This document shows positions 786-23,230 of a DNA stretch of 64,000 bases, in pieces. The stretch lies in assembly GCA_000002445.1 (NCBI GenBank), contig CM000208.1:2336001-2400000 (forward strand). The letters run 5' to 3'. The stretch comes from Trypanosoma brucei (lineage: Eukaryota). The notes under the pieces are model-generated. The model made no database searches and was not told the origin of the DNA. It saw only the letters and a list, made by a program, of their open reading frames with translations. A program made the translations under genes and the position numbers. Numbering within the stretch: the first letter of the stretch is position 1; every line of letters begins with the position of its first letter.

Positions 786-1811
786 ATGAGTGGAAACTCA
801 CAAACTGCTAGAGCCCTTACGCGGGCTGCATCGGCTGATGGGTTTAATCCATCCAATACGGGCGCGTTTTCCCCCGATGTTGAGGATTTTGAAGCACTTG
901 AAACTCAAGCCCGCGCAGCACTGGAGGATTTGGCAGCGAATGGAAGTCGCAATGAGGCCTTAACGGTGGAGTACATGTGCATTTTAAGAACGTATCGACA
1001 GGCCTGTGAAAGGCGTGCGCAATATGTTGAAGCAGACCTCGTGCAGCGGGTGTTGCGGTACATGCGGTTAGATGAGGAGACGCGCCACGTGTGTGGTTTG
1101 ACGGAGCTTCAAAGGCAGGAGCGGGATGCCATTGAAACTTTACACCGTGAAGAGGTTCAGGAGTTTCACCATGCGTGGAACATGCGAATAGATGAATTGG
1201 AGGAAGAGCAACTGCGGTTGGAAACAGCGCTTATTGAGCGCCAAAATGCAGAGCTGCAGTCCTTCTATGAGGAGGTCAACAGTTTAAACCCGCACGCAGC
1301 AAAGTGTAGCAGGGGGTTGTTGTACGCGCGCGCAGTAGAGCACATTCTCGCGTCCCAGCGGGAATACGTACGCGCCCACAAGAAAAAAAAAGAAGCCGAT
1401 ACTATCGAGGCAAGAGATGCCGAGAGGTTTGTCCAGGCGAAGGTGGAACTGCTTGAGCGACGTGAGGCGATGATGCGGCAGAAGCATGAACAAGAACGAC
1501 ACGTGCTTGAGGTAAAAGCTAAAAGGCGCAGAGCGGAGATGGAGGCGGCCCGAAAGAGGGAACTTTACATCTTGCTGAGGCGGTATTTGAATGCACAGCG
1601 TGAGTTGGAACTTCACCAGAACATTGTTCGGAGTAAAACGGGAACTATTCTTCTGAAACACGCCAGCAACACCAAGGGAAATACGAGCGGAACTGCTGTG
1701 CTGGTGGAGAGCGCAGAGTCCGGCGCATTTGGGATAAGGGCAAGGAAGCAACATTTAGACAATTTAGTCGATTCGTGCACATTACCAAAAATTGGGACAA
1801 AGCCGAAGTAA
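786..1811 (+). CDS. hypothetical protein, predicted coiled-coil (341 aa)
   Basis: ATG-initiated ORF on the coding strand of the transcription unit. It is Glu/Arg/Leu-rich with a heptad-like composition, preceded by a polypyrimidine tract (676-693). No recognisable catalytic motif. Confidence 0.45.
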   Translation: MSGNSQTARALTRAASADGFNPSNTGAFSPDVEDFEALETQARAALEDLAANGSRNEALTVEYMCILRTYRQACERRAQYVEADLVQRVLRYMRLDEETRHVCGLTELQRQERDAIETLHREEVQEFHHAWNMRIDELEEEQLRLETALIERQNAELQSFYEEVNSLNPHAAKCSRGLLYARAVEHILASQREYVRAHKKKKEADTIEARDAERFVQAKVELLERREAMMRQKHEQERHVLEVKAKRRRAEMEAARKRELYILLRRYLNAQRELELHQNIVRSKTGTILLKHASNTKGNTSGTAVLVESAESGAFGIRARKQHLDNLVDSCTLPKIGTKPK

Positions 1812-3128
1812 ATGTAAATTCAGGCTCTGAGATGGTTTCTGGCGTACAATCCGGGACGGGGATGGAGTAATGATGGAAGGAAGAAATATAAGGAAGTGTG
1901 AAGAGAGGAAAAAGAAATTTGAAGTGATGGTGCGAACTTCCGCTAGGTGTTCAGGGCCGTTGACAAGGCTGTATATACTTCTGTTTAAAAGAGGAAACAA
2001 AAAGCCCGAAACATTTTATACTAGAGGGCCATCAAACTAAGCAGGTTGGGAAATCTGTGCTGCTCGGGCGTGTGTAACAGTGCTCAAGAATATCCCACCG
2101 TATCATGTAAATTAAGCACAAAAGCCTTCTTCTTTTGTTCGTGTCAATTTGTTCATTTTTGCTCGTCGGAGGCCTAGTCGATAATACGTACTTGCAAACA
2201 ATCGTGTGTACCTTCTCCCTTCCACATCACCAACACCACGTCCCAGCACTTTAAGAGCCTTTAAAAAAATAAAACAAAAATAGGTGAAATAAGGGTTGGA
2301 CCGCTGGTGGGGGAACATGCGAGTAGAAGGTCTGATTCGGTAACGTATGTGTGTATGTGTTTATGTTTTTTCTTTTCTTCTTTTTTTTTCTTGGTGGAGG
2401 AGGTGCGGTGTTGAGAGTGTTTTTCTTTGGGCAGTTGTTTAGGTATCAGACACAGGGACAGATAGAGCCCACCAAGGCGTCGCATTCTATTTCTTTCCTT
2501 GTGTATTTTCTTCTATGTCGTTACTATCTTGATGTATTTTTCTTTCACGGCAGGACTCCGCGAGAGGTTGATACCGTGTTGTTTTGGCCCATGCAAGAGC
2601 AAGTGGCCATGGATGGACCAATGGTTGGTTCCTGAAGTCTGTATCATATCCAGTACACTTGTTTTTTCTTTTGGTGCCTCTCCCGCCCTTTTGTTCCTTT
2701 GTTTCACTGTTATTGTTCCTCATGCGGGAAAATCAAGTAACTTTGTGGTGTCTGCTCGATGTTGTAACTGATGATTTGCTGCCGCCTCTTCTTTTTTTTC
2801 TTTGTTTGTCCCACGGTTACTTAGTACCCTCCCCGTATCTTCTTCCCGTTTTCACAATTTTTGTCACTCTACTGTTTGTGGGCGTGTTTGTGTTTGGGTT
2901 ATTCACACGTAGGGGAAAGGGCTCCCGAAGGAAGGGTGCATCCAAACGGTGAATTAAAAGCAGAAGGGAAAGATTTATACTCCTTACTTTTTTGTCGATT
3001 TCCGAGGGCTAACAGCGAATACATTTTTGACACATACCCTTTTTTTCTAGAGGACGGGTATTATATCTTGTGAAGGGTGCGAACACCGCCTCCGCACTCC
3101 GTTTCCTCTCTGCCATTACCTCAATATA

Positions 3129-6100
3129 ATGTTGAGCACCCTTTTCTTCGATGGTGCTGACGCTACCAGTGCACTTCACGTACGCACAACTCTTGAAGAT
3201 CGCTTGGGTGATGCACCTGCACGTACCGCAGCTGACAATGTTGTTTCATATCAGGCGATGGATTTCCCCAGTAGCGGGTCGATTCCGGTTCCATCACTGC
3301 GCGCCACACTTTTGTGGTGGTTGGATCGTGATGAGCCGCTGGTTCACATATTGCTAACGGGAAGCACAGTCGGAGATATGAGTTATTCTTCCCGTAAACT
3401 GTCAGTGGAGCTGGTATCACCGCGGCACACTATTATTGCCTGTGGTGTTACACACGTGCGAGATCAGGCGGTGTTTGCCGTGTCGTGGGTAACTTCTCTT
3501 CTCGAAGCAGGGGCTTTGCAAATTCAGCTGCAAAGGAGTAGTGATCATCACAGCCAATTGCTTATTGTTCCGGATGAACAAGCAGTACTAACATCGCGCT
3601 TCTCGGGTGTGGCGGCGGCGTTTGAGTATGATGCGTCAGTGGTTCAGGCGAAGTCAAATGGCAATGGAGGTAACGTCGATGACGAAGAGGGAAACGGGTC
3701 AGAACCCACATTGTGTGCCTCGGTTATTGCGAGCCTGCCGCAGGCCGCCGCCGCCGATGGGCTGCTTTCTGTCATTCTGTTAAGTAACGGCTGCAGGTTG
3801 TGGCGTGTGGAAATAGCCAGTGATGGTACCTTTGTTGAGCATGAGTTCAAAGATGCAAGTGGAACTAGTGATAGCGATGGGGAGTTTTTAGGCGGCAGTT
3901 TACTTCCGTCATGGCTCCTCACGTGGTCGCAAGATCATAGGGAAAAGAGCCACCGGCGGTACATCGCCGTGAGTTCCGTGCAGCTGACCCACTACTTTGC
4001 CATTCTTCGCTCTAATGGCTCAATAGGATTGTACGATGACTCCCTGTCCACCATTTCATCAGCGTCAGAGTGTGCCCTAACAAAGGATGAGATGGTTTTT
4101 AGTCACGCACTTCAGTGGTCCGCGCTTATCGGTAATGACGTGCATGTTGTCACCAGTTTTGGTAGGAAGGAAATTCGGCAGTGCTTGTGGGCTCGGATAC
4201 CCATCGCATCAACAAGCGGTGATGATCCCAAAACAGTCAAAATGACGATCCTCCCACCTTCGTCCACGAGCACCCTTTTGGGGTGTGTTGCCATAAACCC
4301 AACACGTCTTTCCCTTTTGTGGGGTATTGGGGCAGAGGAGGATGCATGTATTCGTTGTTCGCTTTCTGTTGGTTCACTCATGCATGCCAATGAGCAGGGC
4401 TTGTCAGGCATATTGCAAATCATTGATGCAGAGGAGGAGTTGGATGCAGATGGCGGTTCCATCAGTGGTTCTTGTGCTTATTCTTCACTCAGGGAGGCCC
4501 AGACTTTCTTCTGTCATTCTAAACCGCTGCATGCGCTTACGGCTGTGGGAGAAGAAATGGTACTGGTAGAAAAGGTTGATGAGAGCGTACGAGCTCATGT
4601 ACTCACCAGTGATATGAGTCCGCTCGAGGAGATGCTGGAATCTGCCTTTGCCGTTACGAGGCCGGTTGCGGCGACGACGCACTGCACACTACCACTTGCA
4701 TCCCTTCATCTGATTCCTACGGTGGTTAGAGAAAGCGGATGTGCGACGGCGGGAAAGCTTGAAGCATTTTATGAGGGCATAGAACTGGCTGCCTCATGTG
4801 CAGAGGCCGCGGATCACCTTTCGGCCCTTTTGATCAATGCAGTGCATTGTGTTCCAGTCGCATCCACCCTGGGTGGCTTTCAATTACTGCGCAGTGCCGC
4901 ACATTTACAGGGGTATACGCCCTCCGGATTTGTAAACGAGGACGCTATCAAGGCCGCCATCGAACACGCAACTATGTTTTTTGACGTTTCCACAAGGAAG
5001 GCATCGTTCTGTAGCTACTCGAGACACTTTATTCAACATACCATCGCACGGGATCTCTTGTTGCGCGTTGCTTACCTTACATGCTCTTTTATTGGTTGGA
5101 TGGGGTCGGACCCTGATTACCGAACGAGTCCTGAGATTGCCCGCGTCCGCGCTACTCTTGAACTTTTGTCCGCTGCGTACCATTCCGTAAGCGTCACAGG
5201 CCCTTCAACAGCAACCATCGTACCTGAAGTGCGTAAAACGGTCGTTGACGATGCCATTAGGTTGTTTTTACAATTTACGGTGGGCGAGGAAGCGGAGGGA
5301 AACGATGTGCTTTTTGCCGTCCGGGTGGCAAACAGGCTAAGGGCCTGCAATGAAGCTCGCGGTCCAAAAGCTTGTGCAACTTGGTGCAATCTACTTAGTC
5401 GTCGTTATCCGTGCTTGCAACACTTCCGAATTATTCGCTGCATCGAGGTAGGCCGGACGTCATGTCCCTCACAACTAGCTGCTATGTGCCTGGCGACCAC
5501 CTTTCACTTGGTGAACTGTCCTGTGCCAGTTGCCAAAGCGTTGTTGCTCGACTGTGGGTTGGCCATATACAACGACAGCACATTTCAAACTGCCTTCAAC
5601 GGTATAGACGTCAGAGAGTGGTGGGCGCTGCTAGACGATAGCGGTGACTCCAACGATGGAAAAATAAGTGCCGTCATCGCCTCTGTGTACCGTGTGGCGC
5701 TCCTTCGCTGCATTGTGCACCCCGGTACTTCACACCATGCGAGCGCTAGTGCATCGCTAGTTCGTGAGCTGTTTCTTGCGGAACTGATTCAACTCGGACA
5801 GCACCTTCAAGAGTCACGTCTTGACTGTCCTGGGATCCTTCGGGCACTCACAGAACTCCGCGTAGATACGCACATGTTTCTCGCGAGAGCGGCTCTCGAC
5901 GATCCCAACTTTGGGGATGCGTTCCGGTCGATTGCAGATGTGCAGCAGATCGCGGTGGGTCCTGATATAAAGACTGTGTGCATGGAGAAGATTGGGCTTT
6001 TGATTGGTGAGGTAGTCGAGATTGCGTCTTCATCCGATGAACTTACCGACTGCCTTGTCGACGTCACGCACTGTAGTGCTGAACTAGACACTCTTCTCAC

Positions 6101-7349
6101 GTCCAAGTGGTACTCGTTTATTGCACGACTAGCTGTCAGAAGCGGTTCAACAGAGGCAGAACAACTGCGATGGCGCGCAGCAATTGGCCTGTACCGTTAC
6201 CTTTGCAAGCGTCACGCATACGGGCAAGCCGGCCGGATGATGACAGACCTTACCACAGCCATACGTTGCTCATCGCTTCGTGCGAACGTTGTTGAAACAG
6301 TGGTGGAACTCACTTCACTGGCTGTGACCGCGGTGGAACTCATCTCTCCAATAGCTCCACTTCAGGTACAAGACAGCGAACCCTTGGATGGTGCTCAGGA
6401 ATCTTCCACATTTAGTGCGTGCAGTGGTACAGGGTGCTTTTTTACACCAGAGTACGCAGCTGTGAGGGAGCCGTTGGGTCGTGAGCACCTTCCATGGGTG
6501 CGGCGTCGCCATTATCAGGCATATTGTGAACAGCAACTCCTGAAGGCGAATCGACGTGTGGACTGCACGGATTTGTGGGTAGAAAATCCGCCACCAGCGG
6601 CGTACGCCGCTGCATTGAGACGCTTCGTGGAGGCACTCATGGAGGCGCGGCTATGGACTGAGGCTTTGCGGTTTGCAGCTATGGCAGGGGCTGATGTTGG
6701 TTTGGTGCTTCAAAATCACGCGCTGGACCTTATGAAACATACAAATTACACCTGCGACGAGGAGGCTCTTGAGGAGTGGGTTATGTTAGTGGCAAGTTGT
6801 GAAGAATTTTCCACACTTTCTAACAAGTATTCACCATTGCGTTCAACTGTTGTCACAGCACTTCTATGTGACTGCGAAAAGGTGTGCCCTGCGCTCCTAG
6901 ATTCTCTCCTAAAGGCCGACCGCTATGAAGCGCTACAAGCGCTTCTTGAGGTATTTGAAACGCTGCTTCGCAGAAATTCCTTCTCCGAAGGAGACGATAT
7001 GACCGACGGAGAGGACCGTAACCACGACTCCTTGACATCTGCCGCATGCAATGAGGAGGAAGGTGATGATAAAAGTGACGGTGCGTACAAACCATGGATG
7101 TTGCTGCTGAAGGCCCTTCAAATCGGTACCGCCGTTCTCATGGACTCGCTCTCGAATGAAGAAAAGTTTGAGCTAAACGAAGCACCGATGACGGCTGGTG
7201 TCTTTGATCCTATGGTGCGGAGGGCGAGTGAACTACTGAACTCACCGTTGTTGCTTCAACACCCTTCTCTTGTGAAAGCGGAGGGTACAGCAACGAACTT
7301 TTTGAAATTTGTTGGGTTGGTGAAGCAGAAGAAGTTAGCAGGGCTATAG
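3129..7349 (+). CDS. large conserved hypothetical protein (1406 aa); N-terminal beta-rich region then long alpha-helical region (beta-propeller/alpha-solenoid-like)
   Basis: Uninterrupted 4.2-kb ATG ORF in the sense orientation of the unit, with a long polypyrimidine tract upstream (2775-2850). No motif I can name; the architecture is inferred from composition only. Confidence 0.55.
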   Translation: MLSTLFFDGADATSALHVRTTLEDRLGDAPARTAADNVVSYQAMDFPSSGSIPVPSLRATLLWWLDRDEPLVHILLTGSTVGDMSYSSRKLSVELVSPRHTIIACGVTHVRDQAVFAVSWVTSLLEAGALQIQLQRSSDHHSQLLIVPDEQAVLTSRFSGVAAAFEYDASVVQAKSNGNGGNVDDEEGNGSEPTLCASVIASLPQAAAADGLLSVILLSNGCRLWRVEIASDGTFVEHEFKDASGTSDSDGEFLGGSLLPSWLLTWSQDHREKSHRRYIAVSSVQLTHYFAILRSNGSIGLYDDSLSTISSASECALTKDEMVFSHALQWSALIGNDVHVVTSFGRKEIRQCLWARIPIASTSGDDPKTVKMTILPPSSTSTLLGCVAINPTRLSLLWGIGAEEDACIRCSLSVGSLMHANEQGLSGILQIIDAEEELDADGGSISGSCAYSSLREAQTFFCHSKPLHALTAVGEEMVLVEKVDESVRAHVLTSDMSPLEEMLESAFAVTRPVAATTHCTLPLASLHLIPTVVRESGCATAGKLEAFYEGIELAASCAEAADHLSALLINAVHCVPVASTLGGFQLLRSAAHLQGYTPSGFVNEDAIKAAIEHATMFFDVSTRKASFCSYSRHFIQHTIARDLLLRVAYLTCSFIGWMGSDPDYRTSPEIARVRATLELLSAAYHSVSVTGPSTATIVPEVRKTVVDDAIRLFLQFTVGEEAEGNDVLFAVRVANRLRACNEARGPKACATWCNLLSRRYPCLQHFRIIRCIEVGRTSCPSQLAAMCLATTFHLVNCPVPVAKALLLDCGLAIYNDSTFQTAFNGIDVREWWALLDDSGDSNDGKISAVIASVYRVALLRCIVHPGTSHHASASASLVRELFLAELIQLGQHLQESRLDCPGILRALTELRVDTHMFLARAALDDPNFGDAFRSIADVQQIAVGPDIKTVCMEKIGLLIGEVVEIASSSDELTDCLVDVTHCSAELDTLLTSKWYSFIARLAVRSGSTEAEQLRWRAAIGLYRYLCKRHAYGQAGRMMTDLTTAIRCSSLRANVVETVVELTSLAVTAVELISPIAPLQVQDSEPLDGAQESSTFSACSGTGCFFTPEYAAVREPLGREHLPWVRRRHYQAYCEQQLLKANRRVDCTDLWVENPPPAAYAAALRRFVEALMEARLWTEALRFAAMAGADVGLVLQNHALDLMKHTNYTCDEEALEEWVMLVASCEEFSTLSNKYSPLRSTVVTALLCDCEKVCPALLDSLLKADRYEALQALLEVFETLLRRNSFSEGDDMTDGEDRNHDSLTSAACNEEEGDDKSDGAYKPWMLLLKALQIGTAVLMDSLSNEEKFELNEAPMTAGVFDPMVRRASELLNSPLLLQHPSLVKAEGTATNFLKFVGLVKQKKLAGL

Positions 7350-7770
7350 TTGCTCCCGAATAAGGAAAGGCCAGGTAGTGTGCGTCAAAATAGAGGAGTA
7401 ATTCTAAGGTAGGAGAAGAAGTGAAGCAAAAGTTGAAAACTTATATATATTATATTTTTCCTGGGGTGGCAACAAGAGTTGAGTCCAAGACATTTTTTGT
7501 CACCACAACTCTATCTGCGAACCATTTTGTTGGTTGGTTGTGGCGGCGGATCGTGAAGTTGCCAATGGGGGCGACAAAATTATCAAAAAAAGGCAATGAA
7601 AGGGGGATGTCACTCAAGCCCACCAAGGGGAGGGGAGGTGGTGAACGAATGGTTGGTAATCTCTTAAAAGGGAAACACTTTTTTTTGCCGCCGCGGCGTG
7701 CGGTTGAACTCTTGTGTGCGTGTGTGAAGGGGAGCCATGCCATTTTTCGCTACGTACACGCAGCTCTGTA

Positions 7771-7796
7771 CTTAATTCTCACTTTTACCCTCGTAG
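7771..7796 (+). promoter_or_regulatory. polypyrimidine tract plus AG, candidate trans-splice acceptor for the CDS at 7819
   Basis: cttaattctcacttttaccctcgtag lies immediately upstream of the ATG. Kinetoplastid SL-addition sites follow such tracts. Confidence 0.45.
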
Positions 7797-7818
7797 GTGG
7801 ACACCTTAGGAGCACACC

Positions 7819-10149
7819 ATGAAGCGGAACCGTAACCACAACGACCAAATGGGTCCAGCGGCTGCAGCGTTGCGCCGCCGCTCTGTTTTTCGTGATGCTC
7901 GCGCTTCTTCTACACAGTTGACTGATGCCCAGTTAATCGCAGGGGCGCTAGAGATGCAGCGTAGCATTGGCCCCTCGAACACAAGTACAACTGTTGTTAT
8001 CAACAGCCCAGAGGAACTTGCTCTTTACAGACAAAAAACGCGTGCTGAACTGGAGGAGCGGGTGAAACGCGGCTACACATTCCTTGGAAATTGGGTGAAG
8101 TATGCGAGGTGGGAGGCACAACAGAAAGACTACGAGCGCATGCGCAGCATACTGGAACGCGCCGTCAAGTTTCATGGCGCAAATCCCGTTCTCTGGCGCG
8201 ATTATGCTGAGTTGGAGGAGGAGGGTGGTTTTATAAATCATGCACGAGCGGTGTGGGAGCGTGGTGTCACTGCACTACCATCCGCGACAGACCTCTGGCT
8301 AAAATATATTGTGCTCGAACAGGCAGCAGGGCAGGACGGTAAGGTGCGCGACTTATTTAACCGTTGGGTGTCAGGGCCGACGCCACCTGCGTGCGCATGG
8401 GAGTTATTTGCGCTGTTCGAGGCGCAACAGCGTCGCGCTGAAAACTGTCGGGATATTTTGCGGCGGTATGTGGAGGCTCACGGCACTGTGGAGTGTTGGA
8501 TTTTCTATGGTAGTGCCGAGTTGAATGTGCTGAAGAATGCGGACCGTGCCGCCATGGTTTACGCTTGTGCGATGGAATCGTTGCCTAACGAATATATAAA
8601 TGGTGAGAAAGATTGTCGAATACCGCTTGCGTGGGCTGACGCCCTTGCCGCCGCACTGAAATTTGATGAAGCACGCGAACTATATCATCGTCTTTTGAAG
8701 GAGTGTACATCTGTGAAGGCACTGGACGCCATTTTCACGGCTTACAAGCGCTTTGAACGACTATACGGAAGTGCTGAGAACCATGAGACTATGACCTCAG
8801 TCATCGCCAGAGCAATGTACCAGCATCGCATCGCCCACAACCCTCGTGATTTTGATGCTTACGTTGCGCAGTTTCTACTTTTTCGTGATGCGACCCAAGG
8901 AGATAATGCAAGTGTGTGTGCGGGCCATGCTGTTAATGTGGGCAGTAAGGGAGGAGCGTGGGAGGAGGCACTCCAGTGTTTAACGGCTGCTGCTGGGATC
9001 CGTATTGATGGGGAGAAAGATGCTGTGTTGGCGCAACACCACGCTGTTGTGGTGATGGCATATGCGCGTTTGGTGGAGGAGCGTGGTGATGTGGCCGCTG
9101 CACGCTCAGCATTAGCGAAGTGCATCCGCCATTTCCCCTTTAAGACGGCATGTTGCCCACGACTCTGGATAGAGGCTGCAGCGCTTGAAGAGCGACATGG
9201 TGAGTTTGTTCAAGCACAAAAACTTCTCGCTGCGTCACTTAATATCTCACCCTGCCCCGAAGTATTCGATGCTGCGCTTCGCTTGGAGTCTAATGCTTGC
9301 GCAGCTGGTGAAGTTAGCGCAGAAAGTTGCGTTCAGCGCAGTCGTGCCATCTATGAGAGTGCGATTAAGCAGTTCCCACAAAATTTCGCCTTGTGGGAGG
9401 GCTACGCGAAGTTGGAGGAGAAAGAACGACAATTTCACCGCTCTGACGCCCTGCGTGCTGCATGCATACGTTCCTTCTCCGCAGTTGCGCGGTCGGTGGT
9501 CTCGTTGTCTGAGCGTTATGAAGTACTGGAGAAGGTGGACCAAGCTTGGGCGCGCCGCCTCGCTCTGAAGCGACGTCTCCTTCGCTCTGCCCGCAAGAAA
9601 ACGTGTGGAGGGCTCTCGGAGAGTGCTGAGGTGGAGGAACTTAACTTTTCCCTTCGTCAGCTATACCAAGAGCTGTTGGATTCCGTGTGGGATGAATACA
9701 TATATGAAGCATTACGTTGGAGGGGTAAAAATGCCTCAACAGTTGGGGTTCTCTCCCCGCCCCCATTGCGGCTGCCGGAGGTTCTTACACCGGCGACGGC
9801 CAGATGGGCAGAGGCCGTTAGTGCGGTGACAAATTTTGTTGTCTCGTCGACGACGGCTGATGGTCGACCGGAGGACTCGTCTGTGGAGTGGATGCGCACA
9901 ACATTCCGTAAGCGGCTTGAGAGGTACCGCCCCAAGTTGCTGCAAGAGTTTGGGGGGCTGGACAATAACGCCAGTTTTGAGGCGATACAACAGTCGAAGC
10001 GGTGGGTAGAATTCCTTCTGTCTCCGAACGGAACGGAGTGGCGGCGGTTTGAAGCAGCTCATGGGACATCTGATACGTTGGAAGCGGCGAAGGAATGCAC
10101 GCAACCAACTGCACGTCGCACGCGGTTGTTTGTGAAGAAAAAGGCATGA
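7819..10149 (+). CDS. HAT (half-a-TPR) repeat protein, crooked-neck/Clf1/Syf3-like pre-mRNA splicing factor
   Basis: Repeated W-x-K-Y-A-x-W-E ... E-R-A-R-x-I-x-E-R-A ... N-x-x-L-W-x-x-Y-A-E-x-E ... N-H-A-R-x-x-W-x-R units (for example WVKYARWEAQQKDYERMRSILERAV, LWRDYAELEEE, NHARAVWERGVTALP, LWLKYIVLEQ). This matches the crooked-neck HAT-repeat pattern. Polypyrimidine tract plus AG at 7771-7796. Confidence 0.65.
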   Translation: MKRNRNHNDQMGPAAAALRRRSVFRDARASSTQLTDAQLIAGALEMQRSIGPSNTSTTVVINSPEELALYRQKTRAELEERVKRGYTFLGNWVKYARWEAQQKDYERMRSILERAVKFHGANPVLWRDYAELEEEGGFINHARAVWERGVTALPSATDLWLKYIVLEQAAGQDGKVRDLFNRWVSGPTPPACAWELFALFEAQQRRAENCRDILRRYVEAHGTVECWIFYGSAELNVLKNADRAAMVYACAMESLPNEYINGEKDCRIPLAWADALAAALKFDEARELYHRLLKECTSVKALDAIFTAYKRFERLYGSAENHETMTSVIARAMYQHRIAHNPRDFDAYVAQFLLFRDATQGDNASVCAGHAVNVGSKGGAWEEALQCLTAAAGIRIDGEKDAVLAQHHAVVVMAYARLVEERGDVAAARSALAKCIRHFPFKTACCPRLWIEAAALEERHGEFVQAQKLLAASLNISPCPEVFDAALRLESNACAAGEVSAESCVQRSRAIYESAIKQFPQNFALWEGYAKLEEKERQFHRSDALRAACIRSFSAVARSVVSLSERYEVLEKVDQAWARRLALKRRLLRSARKKTCGGLSESAEVEELNFSLRQLYQELLDSVWDEYIYEALRWRGKNASTVGVLSPPPLRLPEVLTPATARWAEAVSAVTNFVVSSTTADGRPEDSSVEWMRTTFRKRLERYRPKLLQEFGGLDNNASFEAIQQSKRWVEFLLSPNGTEWRRFEAAHGTSDTLEAAKECTQPTARRTRLFVKKKA

Positions 10150-10424
10150 AGAAGCAGGGTTAGTGAATGCACGAGGCTGAGGAGAGGTGTGGTAGTATCA
10201 GAGAGTGTGGAAGCTGTAAATTGCTGTCACTTGCCAAACAGAAAGGCCCGTTTATTGTATATCATTGTAATTCTCTATTGGTCGCTCCTGCCTCTCGTGT
10301 TTCTATTTTACATGCATCTTCTTCTTTGTCTCATGCGATCATAAGAGCTTTTCACCTTGCAGCGACAAGCCGCCTAAACGCTTTTTGATGCTATTCGGGG
10401 ACCCTAAGAAGTATCGTGCCTTCA

Positions 10425-10497
10425 CACCGATTCTTCAACTTCTCGTAGGGCGTGTTTCACTCCAGATCGCCTTAAACTCTTGTTTCCCGGTCCACAG
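10425..10497 (+). promoter_or_regulatory. polypyrimidine tracts plus AG dinucleotides, candidate trans-splice acceptor region for the CDS at 10504
   Basis: ttcttcaacttctcgtag ... ctcttgtttcccggtccacag, ending 7 nt before the ATG. Confidence 0.4.
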
Positions 10498-10503
10498 GTA
10501 AAA

Positions 10504-13437
10504 ATGGAGCAGGCACAGCGGCCGCCGGACAATGTGATGGGTGTTATGCGTTGTGCTGTTGAGCGGGGTCGCAAGTCATTCGTTGCGTATAAGAAACGTT
10601 TTTGGGTTGTTGATGAGACACAAGGCCGTTTAGAGGTGTACAAAAATGATCAAGAGCCGGTACCGCTAGATAGGTTCTGCGCATCAGAGGTGCGTGGAGT
10701 CATTATATCTGGTGACAGACAGAACAAGTTTTATGGCCTTGTACTGCAACTTCGGCGTGGCCAAAACATCAAACTCCGACTTAGCTCTCTGGCGGAACGG
10801 GATAGGTGGTATGCCGCAATCACTCGTCTCATCGAACGATGCTCCACGTACAATCGTGACTATAATCTGTTGCGCGTCGCGCAACGGAGAACGCTGGTGG
10901 CAGGGCGTTTATTAGGGGTGAACATTACTTTGGCCGTTGCACGATTAAGTGATATCCCTGATGATCTTCTTCAGTACCTGGTGGAAGCCGTTGATGTTGC
11001 CATCGACACAATCTCCGCGGCGGTCCATGCATACGGTGGTGATGTGGAGGTGCCACGGCGGTACACGATCACAGTAGAAGCGGGCCAGGATCGTATTGAT
11101 ACGGGCCCACAGTATGACCCAACTACAGGTAGTCTCCTGCTAAACGTGTGGATTTCACGAGATGTAACAGGTAACGTTCGCTTCAATGTTGCGGATTCGG
11201 CGGAAGTGATGAAAATGACGCAGTCACACGTGTGGCGTGAACCGCGGATCGAGGGGTGGATCACAACAAATCCAAGTTGCGTTGCTGTTTGCCGTGAAAT
11301 TGGTGAAATGCTCGGAAGCAGGAACTTTTCATTTTCATTCCAGTGGGGCCAAAACTTACGGGATACGGAGAGGGTTGAACAATATTTGCATCAGTACGTT
11401 CATGAGGATTTTTTGCGTGCAATTCATCGGAATATCGTCGAGGTAGTGGAGGATTTCAGACGCTCTGATACAGACGCTGACGATTCGTGCTATCTCAAGT
11501 ACATTGGGGACTTTGTTTCTGGAATAGCTATTGTTCTGGATGAATCAACTGTAAATGCGGGGAAGCCACCTCTACTGCGTGTAACAACTACGGTTGAGTA
11601 CCAGCGGCGTTGCAGGCACGCAGTGGTGCTGAAGTCGAAATACTTTGAAGTGTACCGGACGCAGCGTGTGCTGACCAAGTCATTGAGGTTGCAACTTGTA
11701 GAAGTTATTCTCCTAGCAGACCTGAGCAAGCGGCTGAGTGACAGTAAAACTGCCCTAACTCAAGCCATTGGAGGCAACGAATGTGTGCGTATTATATGGG
11801 TTAACTTATTTCGCTCGTTTGCAAGCGTTGGCGCTCAGCTACCTCAATTTAAGTTATCTGATGTGGTCACTTCCATCACTAACACTTATTTGACCCGTCT
11901 AGAAAGCCTACAGCAGTTGGGGTCACTTGAGCTACCGTACGCTGGAGTGAAACCGCTTTACGCATCACTTTTTTCCAATGTCACCACTCTTGTCGTTGAT
12001 TTTGTGCCATTTAAGGAGGACGACGTTTCCCAACTGCCGGAGCCAAAGGTTCACGACGGTATATTGACGGATTACATTGTCTGCTGCACAGCCGCTCAAC
12101 AACGTGCTATGATGAATTTCATTTGTTCGCGAAGAGGTGTACCTCAGATTGATCGAGCCTATGTGCTGTTGAATGGTCTTTTTGCTTTTCCTTCGATGCC
12201 CGCAACTACCTTCAAGGAGTGGTGCGAGAAACAAGCATTTAATGGCGTGGAGGGATACAGTGGGGCGAATGACGATGATTCTAGCTCCCGCTCTTCTGGA
12301 GGAAGTGATGACTTGGGCGATGCTGTGGCGTTTGAGCGCAACGCGGAGGCACAAGTGCTCGATCTGCACCGTGTTGTGAGTACAATCTACGACTCGCAAG
12401 GTGCTGCCGTACACCTTAAGATCGGTGCGGATTCTATCCGTGATGCTATCGAAGCCCTCGAACAGGCATTTGACGGACGTCAGATTCGTAAGCACGATTT
12501 GGTGCGTGTACTTACAGCCAATCTACGTCGACTACGGGCTATTTATAGTCATGCTGTTGGAGGTGAAGTGATGACTCGTCTCGACTTAGATGCGGCAGGA
12601 CGGCTTCTTCGTTCTCTCTGTGAATACAAGGAAAGTGAACAAGGCCTTGATGAGTTGCTTCAGCGATGTGCCCAACAACGACAGCAGGCCGTGAGGCTGG
12701 GAAGCAGTGACTCGGTGCCCCAAGAAAGAAGATCGCTGTCCTGCAGCGCATCGGAAAGTATCTACGATTTTCAATGTGTATCGCAAGTGGCGCTAAACTA
12801 TGTTCTACCACGGGAGGTGAAGCTAGCCCGTAAAGCGTGGCGCGTCGGTCTTGTTGCGGGTCTTCAGGATGTTGGAAAAACGCTGATCCTCAACTCTCTT
12901 CACGGTGTCATACAACCGACATTTCCAACAATTGGACTTTCCCAGAGAGTAATCGCTTTTGAGGAGTGGGTGTTTGCGATGCACGAACTCGGTGGTCGAG
13001 AGAGTTTTCGTGAGAACTGGCGCTACTACGTTGAACGCATGGAGGAGGTCGATTTCTTGTTCTTTGTCGTAGACAGTATGAACAAACGCGCCTTCAAATA
13101 TGCCTCCAATTATCTGCGTGAGATTACCAATTATTTCGTGAATACTCCCCTTGTTGTGTTGTTCAACAATGTCCGTGTAGGCGTTAGAGGCGTTTCCTTG
13201 TTGGATCACTTGTCAGGTGCTGTTAAACTGGACAAAATAAAAAAACGGCAGCCAGAGAGATTCATCATCGTTGGGACATGTGATATTACTGTGGTGAGCT
13301 CGTCGCACCGCACAATTCCTCCGACACTTCTTGAAACTATGCAGCGTCTTGGGGAATATCTACGCCAAGTGTCACCACCGGAGCGAACGCCCAGCGAACC
13401 AAAGAAGGGATCTGGAGTTGAATACACAACGACATAG
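10504..13437 (+). CDS. PH-domain protein with C-terminal divergent Arf/Arl-like (pseudo)GTPase domain
   Basis: The ORF-track start at 10480 is TTG; the first ATG is 10504. The N-terminus (VMRCAVERGRKSFVAYKKRFWVVDETQGRLEVYKND...DRWYAAITRLI) looks like a PH domain. The C-terminus aligns to Arf1: GLQDVGKT (P-loop) ... PTIG ... HELGGR (the Arf WDVGGQ, Gln replaced by Arg) ... FVVDS ... VVLFNNVRV (the Arf NKQD replaced by NNVR). Confidence 0.6.
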   Translation: MEQAQRPPDNVMGVMRCAVERGRKSFVAYKKRFWVVDETQGRLEVYKNDQEPVPLDRFCASEVRGVIISGDRQNKFYGLVLQLRRGQNIKLRLSSLAERDRWYAAITRLIERCSTYNRDYNLLRVAQRRTLVAGRLLGVNITLAVARLSDIPDDLLQYLVEAVDVAIDTISAAVHAYGGDVEVPRRYTITVEAGQDRIDTGPQYDPTTGSLLLNVWISRDVTGNVRFNVADSAEVMKMTQSHVWREPRIEGWITTNPSCVAVCREIGEMLGSRNFSFSFQWGQNLRDTERVEQYLHQYVHEDFLRAIHRNIVEVVEDFRRSDTDADDSCYLKYIGDFVSGIAIVLDESTVNAGKPPLLRVTTTVEYQRRCRHAVVLKSKYFEVYRTQRVLTKSLRLQLVEVILLADLSKRLSDSKTALTQAIGGNECVRIIWVNLFRSFASVGAQLPQFKLSDVVTSITNTYLTRLESLQQLGSLELPYAGVKPLYASLFSNVTTLVVDFVPFKEDDVSQLPEPKVHDGILTDYIVCCTAAQQRAMMNFICSRRGVPQIDRAYVLLNGLFAFPSMPATTFKEWCEKQAFNGVEGYSGANDDDSSSRSSGGSDDLGDAVAFERNAEAQVLDLHRVVSTIYDSQGAAVHLKIGADSIRDAIEALEQAFDGRQIRKHDLVRVLTANLRRLRAIYSHAVGGEVMTRLDLDAAGRLLRSLCEYKESEQGLDELLQRCAQQRQQAVRLGSSDSVPQERRSLSCSASESIYDFQCVSQVALNYVLPREVKLARKAWRVGLVAGLQDVGKTLILNSLHGVIQPTFPTIGLSQRVIAFEEWVFAMHELGGRESFRENWRYYVERMEEVDFLFFVVDSMNKRAFKYASNYLREITNYFVNTPLVVLFNNVRVGVRGVSLLDHLSGAVKLDKIKKRQPERFIIVGTCDITVVSSSHRTIPPTLLETMQRLGEYLRQVSPPERTPSEPKKGSGVEYTTT

Positions 13438-14640
13438 CTCTTGATCTCGTTATGTTGCTGTGACTTGCACTATGTGGTCTCACGGCGTACTTGTTTGAAA
13501 CTCTCTTCGGAGATTCCCTCCCTTCTTTCCTCCCCCCCCCCACCGAGCGGCGCAGTCTTCAAACTTGGCACACGGGAATGGCCAGTAACTTATGCCTGTT
13601 TCATCATATCGTGCGCTTAATAACATTTCTGAAGGATTTACATGCGCCTTTTCCTTCGCTTTTGAGCACCTAGCGGCCGGTAGTTGCGGCAACCTTCGGT
13701 AGATCAATGTTCATTCGACTCACCTTCTTGAGTTAAATGTTGAATTTTAACGTATTCGTGGTTTTCAGTGATCTGCTAGTTGTGAACTCGTTCCTTCCTC
13801 CCCCCTCCTGCACTTCTTTTCGTTGAGTGGTAAGTCGTTGGTCGGCAGGTAGGTGTCATGTACTTCCATCCTCTCCATGTGGTTCCGTTGCTTGCTCCTG
13901 ATGTCTGTATCGGTCAGACCTTATTTGGCTCTTATTAGGTGGGAAGCTGATCACAAAGGAAGAGGTTGATGATATTTTTCACTTACACTTTTTGTTGATC
14001 ACTACACACCGAGGACTGTGTGGCAGTACAAAAGCAGTTGATGTGGGAAAGAAGAAGAGATGCCCCCCCCCCCCGTGGAGCGGAGCGGAGGTTTGCAGGG
14101 GGATGAGGGCTGATGATGGGACTCTTTGGCCCGCACGGTGCGCATGTTGGTGCCTTTTGTAAGGAATTGTGGTGTTGTTTAGGATGTTGCGTTCCCTCAC
14201 CGCCCACGTGAGGTGTTTACTTGCGACTGACAAAAGAAGGCTCCGGTGTGACGCAAGGGGAGGTCAGGTGTGTTCGTTTGAGTTCGAAAACGATGTTACC
14301 CATCAAACCGAATTCGTTTGCAGTGCCACAGCTGCTTAGCTCAATTATTACGTCATTGTTTTTCGTTATCATCGTCACCGGTTTATGTTAGCTTTCGTGG
14401 AGGGACTCTTCTTCGTAAGAGAGGAAAGCGAGTGGCGGATGTGGTGCGGTTGATATCACAACATGTTTCTTCCTGCTTTTTGTTTTTTTTTTGATCGTGA
14501 TCTGTCCAGGGATCAAACTCGCTTCGCGTCCTTTTCACTTGAAGTCACAATTGCTGCCGATTTTTTTCTGATTTGCTCCGTTTACAGCATACTTTGGAAC
14601 GAGGGAAAGCAAAGTAGGGGAGAAAGGAGGTGTATGCGTA

Positions 14641-14704
14641 TTCTTCTGTTTCACTCTCTTTCTACATCCAGAAGGAGGATATTTTTTCCTCCTTTCACAC
14701 TCTA
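14641..14704 (+). promoter_or_regulatory. polypyrimidine tracts plus AG, candidate trans-splice acceptor region for the CDS at 14718
   Basis: ttcttctgtttcactctctttctacatccag and ttttttcctcctttcacactctag. Confidence 0.45.
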
Positions 14705-14717
14705 GCCTAGTTGTGAA

Positions 14718-16121
14718 ATGAGTGTTTGCCTTGGCACGGATCCGTCTCCGCAACTGTTTGCAAGTTGGGCTAAGAAACAGGGCATCTTTCTCCACCCCGA
14801 TGTAGCCTTTCTTGTTCCTACCAAAACAATGGGAGCAGGTGTGTTCGCTCGGAGGCAGCTTCCAAAGGAAACTGTTATAGTCAGCTGCCCATTCAGCAGT
14901 TCCATTTCGCCGTATGCGGGGCCTTCCACCGTTGAAGCTCCCTGTGTGAAAGCACTTAATGATACCCAAGTAAAAGATAATGTATTGTACGTGACACTGC
15001 GCTTTATGGCAGAAGTTCTGCGGCCTTCATCGCCTTGGGTACCGTGGCTTAAAACGTGCCCGCGCATGTTAGACCACCTTTTTGGCAATGTGATTGATGA
15101 TAAAGCGTTTTGCTCTGCTACATGTACCTCATTAGGTACTGTTTCGACACGGTGGACATGTCTTTCGCAACAACTGCTCGAGATGAATGTTTCCCAGCGG
15201 TGGGGTCTTGCAGAAGAGATTATGAAACGCTATCCCGAACACTGGCCGGAGGATCGCGCTACGTTTCCTCTTTTTTGTGAGTGTCTGGCCCTGGTGCTCT
15301 CACGTAATTTCCACCGGGAGAACGTTGAGGGCCGTGAAGGTCCTTACTTACTCCCTGGTCTTGACATGGTCAACCACTCCTTTGAGGCGAACGCAATCCT
15401 GGAAATCCGTGGGGGCGGACGCAAGCATAGTTTAACCTTTTGTCTGGTCGCCTCCAAAGAGTTACGTCGTGGAGAGCAGGTGCTTCTTTCCTATGGAAAG
15501 ATTGGCGCCGCACGGTTTGCCGTGGAGTTCCAGTTCGTCACGGATTCTGTTGTAGGGGAGGATATGCTTCGATTTTCCGTTGATGTAATAGTGGACATAG
15601 TTGCAGCTATTATGGCATCGGGTGAAAGCACAAACGACACAGAATCGAACGTAAGGATGTTGCGGCAGCGCGTGGAGCGACTACAGCGCCTTGGGTTTCT
15701 CTTCGATGAGGGTCTTTACATCTCACGATTACCACGCACCTCAATCAACCGTGACTTAGATGCTGTCGGTAGTTCGTGTTCTGCCTCCACTTGGGGTGCC
15801 GAGATCGCACCTGCAACCGTTAAAGATGTTCAGCGGTTCTTTAATGTTTTCCATCTTATGACGGTAAGCACTGGTGAGTTTGACCATCTAATTCACACCA
15901 TAAACCGGGATTGGCAGGTGAAGCGCACAGATGCCTTGATGACCCTAGCGTCCAGGGTGATAGCTATGCGAGCAGAAGCAGCTCATCTGCAGCTGAATTT
16001 GGTTCAAGAGCAGTTTTCAGGGGAGGAACACTCCTCTCGTCGTAGGCTCATGGAAACTGTTCTGAACTCTGAGCTGCAGATGCTGGATACACTTCAGGAG
16101 TACGTGAAAGGAATGTGTTAA
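14718..16121 (+). CDS. SET-domain protein lysine methyltransferase (SETD6/Rubisco-LSMT-like class)
   Basis: N-terminal SET-N segment (GAGVFARRQLPKETVIVSCPF). Core NHSFEAN (an NHSxxxN-type motif) followed by GEQVLLSYG (the E-E-L-x-x-x-Y-G-like post-SET motif). C-terminal helical region like LSMT substrate-binding domains. Confidence 0.6.
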   Translation: MSVCLGTDPSPQLFASWAKKQGIFLHPDVAFLVPTKTMGAGVFARRQLPKETVIVSCPFSSSISPYAGPSTVEAPCVKALNDTQVKDNVLYVTLRFMAEVLRPSSPWVPWLKTCPRMLDHLFGNVIDDKAFCSATCTSLGTVSTRWTCLSQQLLEMNVSQRWGLAEEIMKRYPEHWPEDRATFPLFCECLALVLSRNFHRENVEGREGPYLLPGLDMVNHSFEANAILEIRGGGRKHSLTFCLVASKELRRGEQVLLSYGKIGAARFAVEFQFVTDSVVGEDMLRFSVDVIVDIVAAIMASGESTNDTESNVRMLRQRVERLQRLGFLFDEGLYISRLPRTSINRDLDAVGSSCSASTWGAEIAPATVKDVQRFFNVFHLMTVSTGEFDHLIHTINRDWQVKRTDALMTLASRVIAMRAEAAHLQLNLVQEQFSGEEHSSRRRLMETVLNSELQMLDTLQEYVKGMC

Positions 16122-16665
16122 GATTTTTTTCTTGTAGTCGCACAAGGGTTTCGGACGTACCGCTTGTAAATATATAGGGGGGGGGTGTCCAGTTCTTTTT
16201 TTTTTGAGGGTTCGGCGATTAAAGCTCTCAACGATCCCCTTCCTCCCATTTCGTCATTCGCTTTAATTATTTGGGGGCCGCTGGCTACTCTATAATTCCT
16301 GTTCCTGGTTGTTCTACTGTGGTACCATGACACTTCTTGTAGTGTTTACAGATGAGTCTCATCTATACGCACTGCCGCCATATTTTTCGATCTCTCCCAC
16401 TTTCCCTGTTTTCGCCCACCCTCAAGTCTCTCCTCTCCAAAGACGCATCTATATTTACTCTTCTGTATACGTGTGCACACAATTTTTTACACAACTGAGG
16501 TTAAGGTATTGTTGGATCATTGTGGTGAACAATCCTGACGCGTATCGTTGCGCGACGTGGGAAGAGGTCGTATATATATATATATATACTTGGTGAGTGG
16601 CTGTGTGTCTGTTCGTATACGTTTGCGTGGCGCAGCGTGGTACAAACATATATATATATGCGCTG

Positions 16666-19600
16666 ATGAATAAGCTGCTTATCACGCTACATGGCTGTCA
16701 TATAATGCATTCCCCGGGTCTCTCGACCGTTTCCCCTCGCGTATTAATAGTGGTGGATGGTGTGTACGAGTTCGTGGCTCACGGGAAAGCTAGCACCTTC
16801 ACATCCTACTTCAACGAGCTTTTCACAGTTGGTTACATTGACCGCTTAACAGTAGTTGAAGTACTTGTATACAATTCGTCAACCACGGGATGTGGAGACT
16901 ACAACGAACAACAGTTGCTTGGGACATGTCGATTATCCACCGTGTGGTTGTTCCAGGGGAAGACACCTAAGCGGCGACGCCATGTTTTGGCGAACGATGC
17001 CGGCATAGCCGGGACAGTTGAGCTCACTTTGATGCTTGACACCTCTAGGGAAGGTAAAGGCAGCTTTGAAGAAGAGACGAACGAGTGGTGTGCCTCGCGT
17101 TTGGTTCGTTTTCTGATGCACAATGATAAGGGCCGTTTGAGGGATGTAGACCTTTTGCTTTCCACAATGGAGACTGATGGAGCACCACTGAGGCCTCTAG
17201 CATCACCCCCAAAATGCGCAGCTGCTTCCTCTGAGAGTTCGCGAAGCTCTTGCGCGGCTTTTGAAGAATTAATGAGGAACCTGTGCGAGGAGTATCACTG
17301 TGAAGAACCTCCGCAGTGTCGGGTCCGGGTTGCTTTGGAAGGTTGTACCTCTCTTGAAGAAAGTGACAAGCACCACTCATCAAATGTAATTGTGGTGTTT
17401 CGGAGTACAGCCGAGGAGTTCGTGTCGCCGTCAAGGCCGTACACGTCTAACCCTGTCTGGGGATCAACGTTGGGTACGGCCACTTTCGACGTCTGTAACC
17501 CGGAGGACTTTGTGCTTGATGTTATTGTGTACCGCATCACTTCGTCATCGGGTTATGTTGAAGTTGGCCGGGCGCGAATACGTGTTTACATGCTCACAAC
17601 GGAATACTCTTCCAAAAGACAATATTTTATTTTCCGCCATGATAGTTACATAACGCCATGTGTTACAGGCGCCGTCCATATCACAATAAAACCGTTGGGG
17701 TTCGGACTGTCACCGAAAGATGCGGGTGGAACCGCCGACTTGTTCCATGCTCGGTTGAATCGTTTTTTTTACCGCTACGATCGTCGGCGACTGCAAGAGG
17801 TGGATATTATTCTCTACTCTCGCAGGAATAAACTGGATGAATTGATGGACGAATTGGAAGTTTACTACGGTCGTGAACCTGGCACGGCAGTACTGTGTTT
17901 GACTGTGGAGGAGGTGCAATCGTTATTGCATGTTGCATCTACGGACCTCGATGGTGAGGATGTAGTAGTTGTGGTCACAATGGGTAGCCAATCGAACCGT
18001 ACAGACGCTAAGCGAGTGACTGCGAACTCTCGAATAGTTTTTGGCAATGCTTTTCAGATTGACGTTGTTCGAGAAACTGATATGATACGGTTTGAAGTAG
18101 TGAAAGCAGGATGTGAGGACGTTGTGTACGGAAGCGTGGATTTTACTTGCCTCAGAATTCAGAAAGGTGTTGAGAATACCCGGACGCTGTATTTGGTAGG
18201 AGCTGCGGGCACAGAGAAGGCATTTCTAAGTGGAACAATAACAGTTACTTTTTTCAGTGAAAATTTGGGCCAGTCGTACACTGCTGATACAGAATCAGAG
18301 TGCATGTATGCAGGGCGTCTGCGTCGCTATGCGTGTCAGCACGCACCAGAAAAACTGCATCTTGTGGACGTGGCGGTTGCTACTGTTTTCGATACTGAGG
18401 GATTCATGAAGGAAATGAGTCGAGATTATGGCGAAGAGAATCCAACTTATGTGCTGTACATGACAGTATTGGGGTGTCGAAAGCTGAGGAAGCGTTTTGG
18501 GTTTACAATGAGTGCGTACGTTGTCGCTCGTATGGGCGTGGACCGCTACGAGACACGTGTAGTGAGAAATAGTACGAAGCCGGACTACTTTGAATTCTTT
18601 GAGTTTTTTATAGATCAGTTCGCGCACACGGAACTCACCCTAGTAGTTATGGATCAGTACGACATGGGTACCGACAAAGAGGTTGGCCGGACTGTCATTC
18701 CCTTGGAAAATGCAATCCCCGAGCATCAGTACAACCTCTGGTTGCCTCTCATGAAGGATGGGTGCTCCAACTGTGGGTTTGTGGGTGTGAAGTTTGTGGT
18801 AAAGGATCTTCAACTTCGCGACTCGTTGTGTGACCACGTCAAAGCAGGAACCTTCTCAGAGCGTTGCGGCCCTAGACAAGAGGAGCTTACATCGCCAAAT
18901 GAGTCACGACGGGCAACAGGTGTTACCAATTTTTCCAACGCGTTATACCACTTGTTTGGTGGGTGGGGCAAGAGAATATTCCGTGCGCCTCGGTGGCAGC
19001 CGTGGCGGGACGAGTCCAGCAAGGGGTTCTCCAAGCTCAAGGTATCTGAAGGGGTTTCGGGCTGTGAGCATGGATCAGATCACCCAGTGCTTGCGAACAT
19101 CATTGACGACGGCATCTACTCTGCAAGTGAGTTCTTGCGACCCAGAACAGCGAGAACGGCACCCAAGTTATTATCAAATCTTCTTGTTAAACAGCGTGCT
19201 CGTCACACCCTCGTCCCGCAAACACCTAACTCTACCACAGGAAGGCGGTTTTTACATGTACACCTCCACTACTGTGACGACTTGGAAGAGAGGCGTTTAG
19301 TTCCTCCAAGCCCATGTGTGATGCTCGCAACGCTCAGGACAACATACATTTCGAGAACAGCGTTCGAAACTTGTTCACCCCGATATGACGATGTGTTTCA
19401 TTTTCCCATCACTTGCCCAGATGAGGACTTTCTTACCATAACAGTCATGACAGACACGCCGTACGGTAGAAAAACTCTTGGGTTCTGTATGCTCTCCATA
19501 AAAAATGTTTGCTATGGCATGCCTCAAACGCGTTACGTAGCGCTGGTGGTCGCCCCTCATGGATCTGTGGCGCAACAACGTGGTGTGGTGTGTCTCTCCC

Positions 19601-22179: not shown

Positions 22180-23089
22180 TGGCGCCGCGCTTTACTGTGA
22201 AAGACTGTTAAGTACATATGTATGTTTATATTGTTTGCAGGGCTCGTGGAACGGTTCGGATGTAAGTGTTTGTGATGTGGTAGTCGTTCGTTTCTGTCAT
22301 GATGTTTAGTAGCGTAAAATAAAGTATTCGTTTATTTATTTGTTGTCCCTTTTTTTAAAAAAAAAATTGTGTAATACCCCTTCTCGCAAAAGTAACGGAA
22401 GAACGGGGCGGTTCTTCCTGAAAGACTGTGAAAATAAAAACAGTACGATACACCGCTGGTGTACAGGGGGAAAGGGGGAAAAAAGGAAAGTCAAGTATGG
22501 TATAGTATTTATTTGTTTGTAGTCTGCTGGCCCCGTGTATTATATGGCAAAACTGAATATAGTGGAACCGTACGTACGGCACTTCGTTCGGTGCCTTTTT
22601 TTTTTTGCGCTGTTTCGTTTATTTGATGCCCTTCATGACTTCTCTTTCCCCCACTGAATCTTACGGTTTTGGCATTACTTACTCGATGGTGGTAACGGGT
22701 TCCGTCATCTTGTCTTTTTATATTTTAAACCTCTTGTTAGCCCGGTTTTCGTTTTTTTCTTTTCTTAAAAAAAAAAAATAATCTAACTCCTGTTTGTGTT
22801 TTTTGGAACAGATCGATGTATGTGGTTGAGGTGTAGAGAGGACAACAGGCACAACAACTTGTGCGATATTACGTGTCGCATGTTAGTTTCCTACCCTTTT
22901 TGTTGCTGTTGTTGTCCTTCACTTCTGTCAGCGGCTTACTTGTTCGTAAAAGTGTCATGGGAGAGGAGAGAGTTCGATTGGAACACTTCCTGATGTGGAA
23001 AACGATTAAGTCTTTTTTCCCCCTTCTGTTCGCTGTGGCTTATTGGTAGACCCCTCATGTGAGCACTTTTATTCTGCTCCCCCTTTGTA

Positions 23090-23230
23090 CTGTTTTCCGT
23101 CTGTGCGAAAACCACTCGTGCCTCTTCTTGTATACTTCGTCATGATACCTTCTTTCTATTTTCTCCTTCTCATTCTTATCATCAATTTACCGTTTCCTTT
23201 CCCCCCTTTTTTTTCGCACTGCCCCCAAAG
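23090..23230 (+). promoter_or_regulatory. unusually long (about 140 nt) polypyrimidine tract upstream of the CDS at 23669
   Basis: cgtgcctcttcttgtatacttcgtcatgataccttctttctattttctccttctcattcttatcatcaatttaccgtttcctttcccccctttttttt. It would give a 5'UTR of about 400 nt containing a purine-rich element (23340-23470). Confidence 0.4.

Follow-up and report, generated by a model that had tools for sequence, protein, structure and literature searches.

Conservation patterns point to a retained phosphate site and replaced guanine-reading residues in the Arf-like domain of PH-Arf, a kinetoplastid and diplonemid protein

Can an Arf-like domain whose catalytic glutamine and guanine-specificity motif have both been replaced still work with a nucleotide, and what would such a domain do at the end of a large multidomain protein? 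This question is raised by a single open reading frame (ORF) on the forward strand of Trypanosoma brucei contig CM000208.1 (assembly GCA_000002445.1), which runs from an ATG at position 10504 to a stop codon ending at 13437 (10504..13437, 977 codons plus stop) of the 64,000-nucleotide stretch analyzed here, referred to as the window (contig positions 2,336,001 to 2,400,000). The ORF is the complete coding sequence of PH-Arf, in which a PH domain, an orphan alpha/beta domain, an acidic linker, a helical module derived from an EF-hand, and a G domain that is a divergent member of the Arf family follow one another; all features described for the gene lie on its own (+) strand. Across the family, the positions that in canonical small GTPases contact phosphate and Mg2+ are strictly constrained, whereas those that read guanine have given way to other residues, some of them newly fixed. 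Our leading interpretation, held tentatively and with slightly less than even confidence, is that the G domain of PH-Arf works as an atypical Arf-like module that binds nucleotide, probably without cycling, within a PH-tethered membrane scaffold.

The protein and its architecture have already been published. Along its whole length, the product shows 100% identity to XP_823190.1 (EAN78362.1; UniProt Q38A08), a sequence common to T. brucei brucei TREU927 and T. equiperdum, which assigns the window to chromosome 10 of the T. brucei group, and this exact protein appears as TbrPH-Arf in a supplementary table of Vargova et al. (2021, Genome Biol Evol 13:evab157; PMC8358228). TcrPH-ARF, LmaPH-Arf, and BsaPH-ARF are tabulated beside it, the orthologous group of all of them being given as "unannotated", and no PH-Arf is tabulated for Perkinsela or Euglena. 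The same study described the trypanosomatid architecture as a PH domain, a long linker, and an ARF domain, grouped the kinetoplastid proteins with choanoflagellate ones, and makes no mention of NKxD, the catalytic glutamine, or the G4 motif in its main text (PMC8358228). A novel architecture, as might have been supposed from a sequence-only reading of this DNA that did not recognize the arrangement, is accordingly rejected. Public records name the protein either "ADP-ribosylation factor family, putative" or "PH domain-containing protein". A literature search for its function, localization, interactions, or phenotype, under the name PH-Arf or Tb927.10.9670, found none; the supplementary tables of other papers lay outside that search, and high-throughput data may exist. 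PH-Arf is thus a catalogued but functionally unstudied family rather than a discovery. What is added here to PMC8358228 is incremental: a census of the G motifs, a Glu-for-Asp change, and an Arg that kinetoplastid-type members have fixed and diplonemids lack, together with diplonemid family members, the undetectability of the proposed choanoflagellate homology, a folded orphan central domain, and an EF-hand remnant.

The assignment of the C-terminus to the ARF family, which the sequence-only reading had proposed, is borne out by three concordant comparisons. For the G domain (12817..13383, aa 772-960), the Pfam Arf profile PF00025 covers aa 772-926 (E=5.4e-16; 59 bits, cutoff 22.3). Over different scans, the match ranges from 59 to 61.6 bits (E=5e-16 to 8e-17), the next-best family being SRPRB at 25.8 bits, while the Roc (19.5 bits), MMR_HSR1, and G-alpha profiles all stay under their own Pfam cutoffs. 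A phmmer search against PDB sequences returned Arf/Arl chains as the top matches (E down to 5e-11), with GGR aligned opposite GGQ. Finally, a MAFFT alignment placed four PH-Arf members against eight ARF-family proteins (Arf1, Arl1, Arl2, Arl3, Arl6, Arl8, Arl16, and Sar1) with sequences taken from the supplement of PMC8358228. In this alignment, the Arf signature, PT[IV]G followed by GGxxxxRxxWxxY, is present in PH-Arf, with PTIG on PTIG and ELGGRESFRENWRYY on DVGGQDVLRPLWRHY; past switch II, its residues R836 and W839 recur in 13/13 and 12/13 sequences, respectively. The G domain also has an Arf-type fold.

The individual motifs tell a more mixed story. In the MAFFT alignment, the G1 P-loop GLQDVGKT (12859..12882) is intact and lies on the canonical GLDAAGKT, and the switch I/interswitch segment FPTIG (12922..12936) holds the G2 threonine, T809. 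By contrast with these, ELGGR (G3/switch II; 12985..12999) aligns with DVGGQ, so that the aspartate has become glutamate and the catalytic glutamine arginine, NNVR (13165..13176) stands on NKQD at the place of the G4 motif NKxD, and CDIT (13279..13290) occupies the place of the G5 motif CAT/SAK, with CDI aligned. Measured against the canonical set (GxxxxGK[ST], T, DxxGQ, NKxD, [CS]A[KT]), only G1 and G2 pass. The intact P-loop and PTIG, the Gln-to-Arg and NKQD-to-NNVR changes, and the degenerate G5 had all been read correctly by eye, the G3 Asp-to-Glu change alone having been overlooked. A shifted eye-alignment would have left a glutamine or an NKxD elsewhere in the domain; no such residues occur nearby, and MAFFT and HMMER both agree with the original placement. 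Judged from these alignments, the G domain is a divergent ARF-family member by homology and not a canonical GTPase by motifs.

Are these replacements peculiar to T. brucei? A word-indexed search yielded 13 trypanosomatid orthologues, and a hidden Markov model (HMM) search with their alignment retrieved 29 proteins at E<1e-30, including Phytomonas and several full-architecture metagenomic or transcriptomic sequences. Also among these proteins are giant versions of 1500-3157 aa and a second tier of ~940-1020 aa contributed by Namystynia, Flectonema, and Diplonema papillatum, all diplonemids. Because diplonemid members exist, the family, which spans kinetoplastids and diplonemids, is older than the split between the two groups. 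The motifs were then counted in an alignment of 22 kinetoplastid-type and 7 diplonemid sequences, with T. brucei Arf1 as the reference. In this census, the two glycines, the lysine, and the Thr/Ser of G1 are each present in 29/29 sequences, as are the G2 Thr/Ser, the Gly-Gly of G3, and the first Asn of G4; the G3 Asp position is occupied by Glu in the same 29/29.

Because every phosphate/Mg position follows this pattern, the phosphate/Mg site is probably still used and a nucleotide is probably bound. Under the proposed mechanism, a nucleoside triphosphate with Mg2+ would be held through the intact P-loop, the switch-I threonine, and ExxG. The same pattern bears on the rival view that PH-Arf is a nucleotide-free, purely structural class I pseudoGTPase offering nothing other than a protein-protein interaction surface. 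We regard this view as unlikely: it gains from the fact that neither the Lys and Asp of NKxD nor a canonical G5 survives, and from ARL14 and ARL15, which purify nucleotide-free or with very low affinity, yet an unused phosphate site would not be expected to keep its P-loop, switch-I, and G3 glycine positions in 29/29 members. For the same reason, the "purely structural" option offered by the sequence-only reading fits the data poorly.

The base-recognition motifs behave quite differently. In the census, the G4 Lys has become Asn (N889) in 28/29 members, and the specificity Asp has been lost in 28/29 (to R, P, G, and others), one diplonemid having kept it. G5 reads Cys-[Asp/Asn] in 22/22 kinetoplastid-type sequences and is variable among diplonemids. 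With the NKxD Lys and Asp missing and G5 remodeled, binding would no longer be guanine-specific in the usual way, and guanine-specific recognition would be gone. This family-wide loss of base-recognition residues is a stronger argument for a pseudoGTPase than the Gln-to-Arg change. It also invites the alternative that nucleotide specificity has switched to ATP or to promiscuous NTP use, by analogy with RhoBTB3, a protein with a Rho-related domain reported to use ATP. An intact phosphate site combined with the replacement of guanine-specific residues by conserved others (N889 in 28/29; the kinetoplastid G5 D/N) is what such a switch would leave behind. The idea is nevertheless pure deduction, and G5 varies among diplonemids; we consider it very unlikely.

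At the position of the catalytic glutamine, the census separates the two branches of the family: Arg is present in 22/22 kinetoplastid-type sequences, confirming that the T. brucei change is conserved across kinetoplastids, whereas the 7 diplonemids have S, G, Q, or A and never Arg, leaving the catalytic Gln missing from 28/29 members overall. Because Gln is lost, ordinary ArfGAP-type hydrolysis is unlikely, and canonical Gln-based turnover would be absent. PH-Arf would then not run a standard Arf cycle driven by guanine nucleotide exchange factors and GTPase-activating proteins. Its G domain would instead be stably loaded, or weakly and unspecifically loaded, and would serve as an interaction or conformational module.

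A Gln-to-Arg change does not by itself suffice to make a pseudoGTPase, since the Roc domain of LRRK2 hydrolyzes GTP with R1398 and ARL10, ARL13, ARL15, and ARL16 also lack the glutamine. By analogy, Arg832 of the kinetoplastids may be functional rather than a sign of loss, even though diplonemids manage without it. Taken to its conclusion, this analogy would make PH-Arf a genuine cycling GTPase in which Arg832 acts in cis as a gamma-phosphate sensor or catalytic residue and guanine is read by other means, for example by the G5 Asp/Asn. Several observations speak for it: the LRRK2 precedent of a DFAGR arginine at the Q61-equivalent position combined with GTP binding and hydrolysis, the conservation of every phosphate/Mg position, and the occurrence of both Arg and the G5 C-[D/N] in 22/22 kinetoplastid-type members, which suggests new functional constraints rather than decay. 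However, diplonemids share the rest of the signature with S/G/Q/A in place of Arg, which is thus not essential to any family-wide function, and the guanine-specificity Asp is gone in 28/29; we judge a cycling enzyme improbable.

The scaffold part of our leading interpretation depends on the N-terminus, where the PH domain (10537..10839, aa 12-112) would tether the protein to a membrane. Scanned alone, the N-terminus matches Pfam PH (PF00169) over aa 24-110 with 27.1 bits against a cutoff of 25.1, in keeping with the PH-like domain first suspected by eye; in a full-length scan, the score drops to 23.2 bits, under the same cutoff. Diplonemid and bodonid-like homologues score over the cutoff, homologue values being 25.9 and 30.0 bits, and the ORP11 PH domain matches with E=0.007. 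The match is marginal yet consistent family-wide. A KNDQ motif at aa 47-50 runs through the family (K47, N48, and Q50 in 12/13 sequences, D49 in 13/13), and a basic YKKRF segment begins PH strand 2. By eye, R16...K30-K31-R32 fits the basic phosphoinositide-binding signature K-Xn-(K/R)-X-R of PH strands 1 and 2, in a region whose first 31 residues are modeled at a predicted local distance difference test score (pLDDT) <50. K30, K31, and R32 are invariant among trypanosomatids, and diplonemids show H/Y-K-R.

Between the central part of the protein and the G domain lies a conserved pre-G helix, FQCVSQVALNYVLPREVKLAR (12769..12831), modeled as a helix over aa 756-776, which sits where the N-terminal helix of an Arf would be and leads straight into strand 1 of the G domain. 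Its residues F756 and L764 are found in 12/13 and P769 in 13/13 sequences. The helix is internal and so carries no Gly2 for myristoylation, the absence of Gly2 being recorded in PMC8358228 as well. In a more ambitious possibility, PH-Arf would be a new kind of nucleotide-operated intramolecular switch, using ATP or any NTP, or hydrolyzing in cis through Arg as in LRRK2, with its interswitch and pre-G helix toggle wired to the orphan domain instead of a myristoylated helix, and would control a membrane process specific to kinetoplastids and diplonemids. We see this as distinctly unlikely; were it true, the fixation of E828 and N889 in the family, and of R832 and D927 in kinetoplastids, would represent new function rather than decay.

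To return to the non-cycling scaffold that we tentatively prefer, the analysis shows which domains are present, the state and conservation of each motif, and the spread of the family across taxa; we infer nucleotide binding, the lack of cycling, membrane targeting, and the scaffold role, and several considerations weigh against them. With the NKxD Lys and Asp gone, the domain might bind no nucleotide at all. LRRK2 hydrolyzes GTP with an Arg at the Gln position, and by this analogy "non-cycling" may fail in kinetoplastids. The PH domain scores weakly, and its binding of lipid is deduced at the motif level only. Moreover, confidence in the structural model is lowest in the switch regions (pLDDT <50 for aa 811-836), and because of this, the geometry of the pocket cannot be judged from it.

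The middle of the protein, taken by the sequence-only reading for a helical region of about 500 aa, turns out to consist of an alpha/beta domain (aa 118-585), a disordered stretch, and a shorter helical module (aa ~606-732). The central domain (10855..12258, ~470 aa) was modeled alone from a 10-sequence alignment and forms a compact mixed alpha/beta structure (pLDDT 80; predicted template modeling score 0.71). No Pfam match was found for it at E<=10 and no PDB sequence match under E=1, and a Foldseek search of the model against the PDB gave nothing significant. It is therefore treated as an orphan domain with relatives undetectable in Pfam and the PDB. A zincin-like metallopeptidase fold was considered and rejected, HExxH being present in 0/24 members.

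The acidic, Ser-rich linker SGANDDDSSSRSSGGSDDLGD (12259..12321) follows, with pLDDT <50 for aa 580-619, and then the helical module (12319..12699), for which helices are predicted and which bears conserved YDSQ and KHD motifs. Inside this module, a degenerate EF-hand-like loop, SHAVGGEVMTRLDL (12541..12588, aa ~680-695), has no Pfam EF-hand match in T. brucei and departs from the canonical 12-residue Ca2+ loop. When the T. brucei loop was compared with those of P0035, P0037, P0040, and P0045, canonical-looking EF-hand loops were found in diplonemid homologues at the aligned position (DPDRTGGVQLSD, DKNNSGAINAPD, and DPSHTGRVRVSE), their Pfam EF-hand matches being weak and sub-threshold (E 0.035-0.13). 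The comparison suggests an ancestral Ca2+-binding module that may have been lost in kinetoplastids.

Some family members depart from the usual size. The giant proteins P0019 (1711 aa), P0022 (1495 aa), P0024 (3157 aa), and P0029 (1787 aa), from EukProt/Logan assemblies, carry low-complexity insertions rich in Gly, Ser, Glu, and Lys between the conserved blocks and retain ELGGR and NN. Another full-length homologue, the P0026 cluster on JGI/IMG metagenome contigs of up to 92 kb, bears the source name "L-rhamnose mutarotase". This name was discarded as annotation noise: Pfam gives just PH and Arf, and the metagenome contigs, which are eukaryotic, seem to have been misannotated.

With regard to the locus itself, the ORF list placed the start of PH-Arf at a TTG (10480), an artefact of the bacterial code; the ATG at 10504 agrees with the start of the database protein. 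Upstream, an ORF of 1406 aa (3129..7349) fits TbNUP152 (Tb927.10.9650), and a HAT/TPR-repeat ORF of 776 aa (7819..10149) fits SYF3 (Tb927.10.9660, 87.6 kDa). Because the gene order runs NUP152, SYF3, PH-Arf, we infer that PH-Arf is Tb927.10.9670. Elsewhere in the window, an ORF of 341 aa (786..1811, +) has no Pfam match, and one of 467 aa (14718..16121, +) contains a SET domain split over aa 39-260 (E=9e-8). Two further ORFs downstream of PH-Arf, both listed from non-ATG starts (16597..22179, +, 1860 aa; 23657..27214, +, 1185 aa), show two C2 domains each (Pfam E=3e-36 and 2e-24) with no other recognizable feature, and resemble multi-C2 proteins arranged in tandem. Every ORF within the first 27 kb that reaches 200 aa (7/7) is on the + strand, GC skew is positive in 31/32 two-kb windows, and the cumulative skew reaches 2.30 at the end of 1..64000. 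These features agree with a single polycistronic transcription unit of the trypanosomatid kind, and the gene neighborhood is therefore uninformative on the function of PH-Arf.

The value of PH-Arf lies in its being a well-defined case: an Arf domain conserved since before the kinetoplastid/diplonemid split, with its phosphate site strictly kept and its guanine-recognition residues replaced, joined to the ~470-aa orphan domain. The organisms carrying it include major human pathogens, and there is no human orthologue. If the domain bound a nucleotide other than GTP or hydrolyzed through its Arg, it would represent a second, independent solution of the LRRK2 type and widen the known scope of the Arf fold; if it were inert, PH-Arf would join the growing list of pseudoGTPase scaffolds.

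How, then, does PH-Arf compare with known systems? PseudoGTPases have been divided into classes I, II, and III (Stiegler and Boggon 2020, as summarized in PMC12722892). Defined by the loss of at least one nucleotide-binding or hydrolysis motif, the term covers PH-Arf, in which Gln is gone from 28/29 members and NKxD is without its Lys and Asp; the sequence pattern favors retained phosphate binding, as in class II or III rather than class I. Within the ARF family, a missing switch-II glutamine is shared with ARL10, ARL13A/B, ARL15, and ARL16. In the Arl16 and Arl13 sequences compared, however, the last residue of G4 is still Asp (TKTD in the MAFFT alignment; NKQD and NKKD elsewhere), whereas in PH-Arf neither the Lys nor the Asp of G4 remains and Glu additionally stands in for the G3 Asp.

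The choanoflagellate proteins MbrArlX and SroArlX share the same generic order, with a PH-like N-terminus and an ARF-family C-terminus. The linker of Monosiga MbrArlX is a low-complexity stretch rich in Ser, Thr, Pro, and Lys, whereas the middle of PH-Arf is a folded domain; what Vargova et al. (PMC8358228) called a linker is here resolved into an orphan domain and an EF-hand-derived module. Homology was tested on the N-terminal 429 aa of MbrArlX and rejected, hhalign having aligned 28 PH-region columns at 1.4% probability, and no choanoflagellate PH-like Arf protein was among the multi-stretch profile hits of the PH-Arf HMM search. As far as these comparisons indicate, the choanoflagellate combination of a PH-like and an Arf domain is probably convergent.

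Outside the ARF family, the Roc domain of LRRK2 offers the closest parallel to the kinetoplastid arginine: in its DFAGR motif, R1398 takes the Q61-equivalent position, GTP is bound and hydrolyzed, and the Arg has been proposed as a gamma-phosphate sensor. As a Roco protein, LRRK2 comes from another family and has a COR domain and a kinase; PH-Arf scores 61.6 bits with the Arf profile against 19.5 bits with Roc. LRRK2 also retains a guanine-specific G4. Also comparable are IFT22/RABL5 and IFT27, small GTPases mostly without the catalytic Gln that behave as stable subunits of complexes; GTP co-purifies with IFT22, whose partner binding is independent of nucleotide. These are Rab-like single-domain proteins, whereas a PH domain and a central domain are found only on the PH-Arf side.

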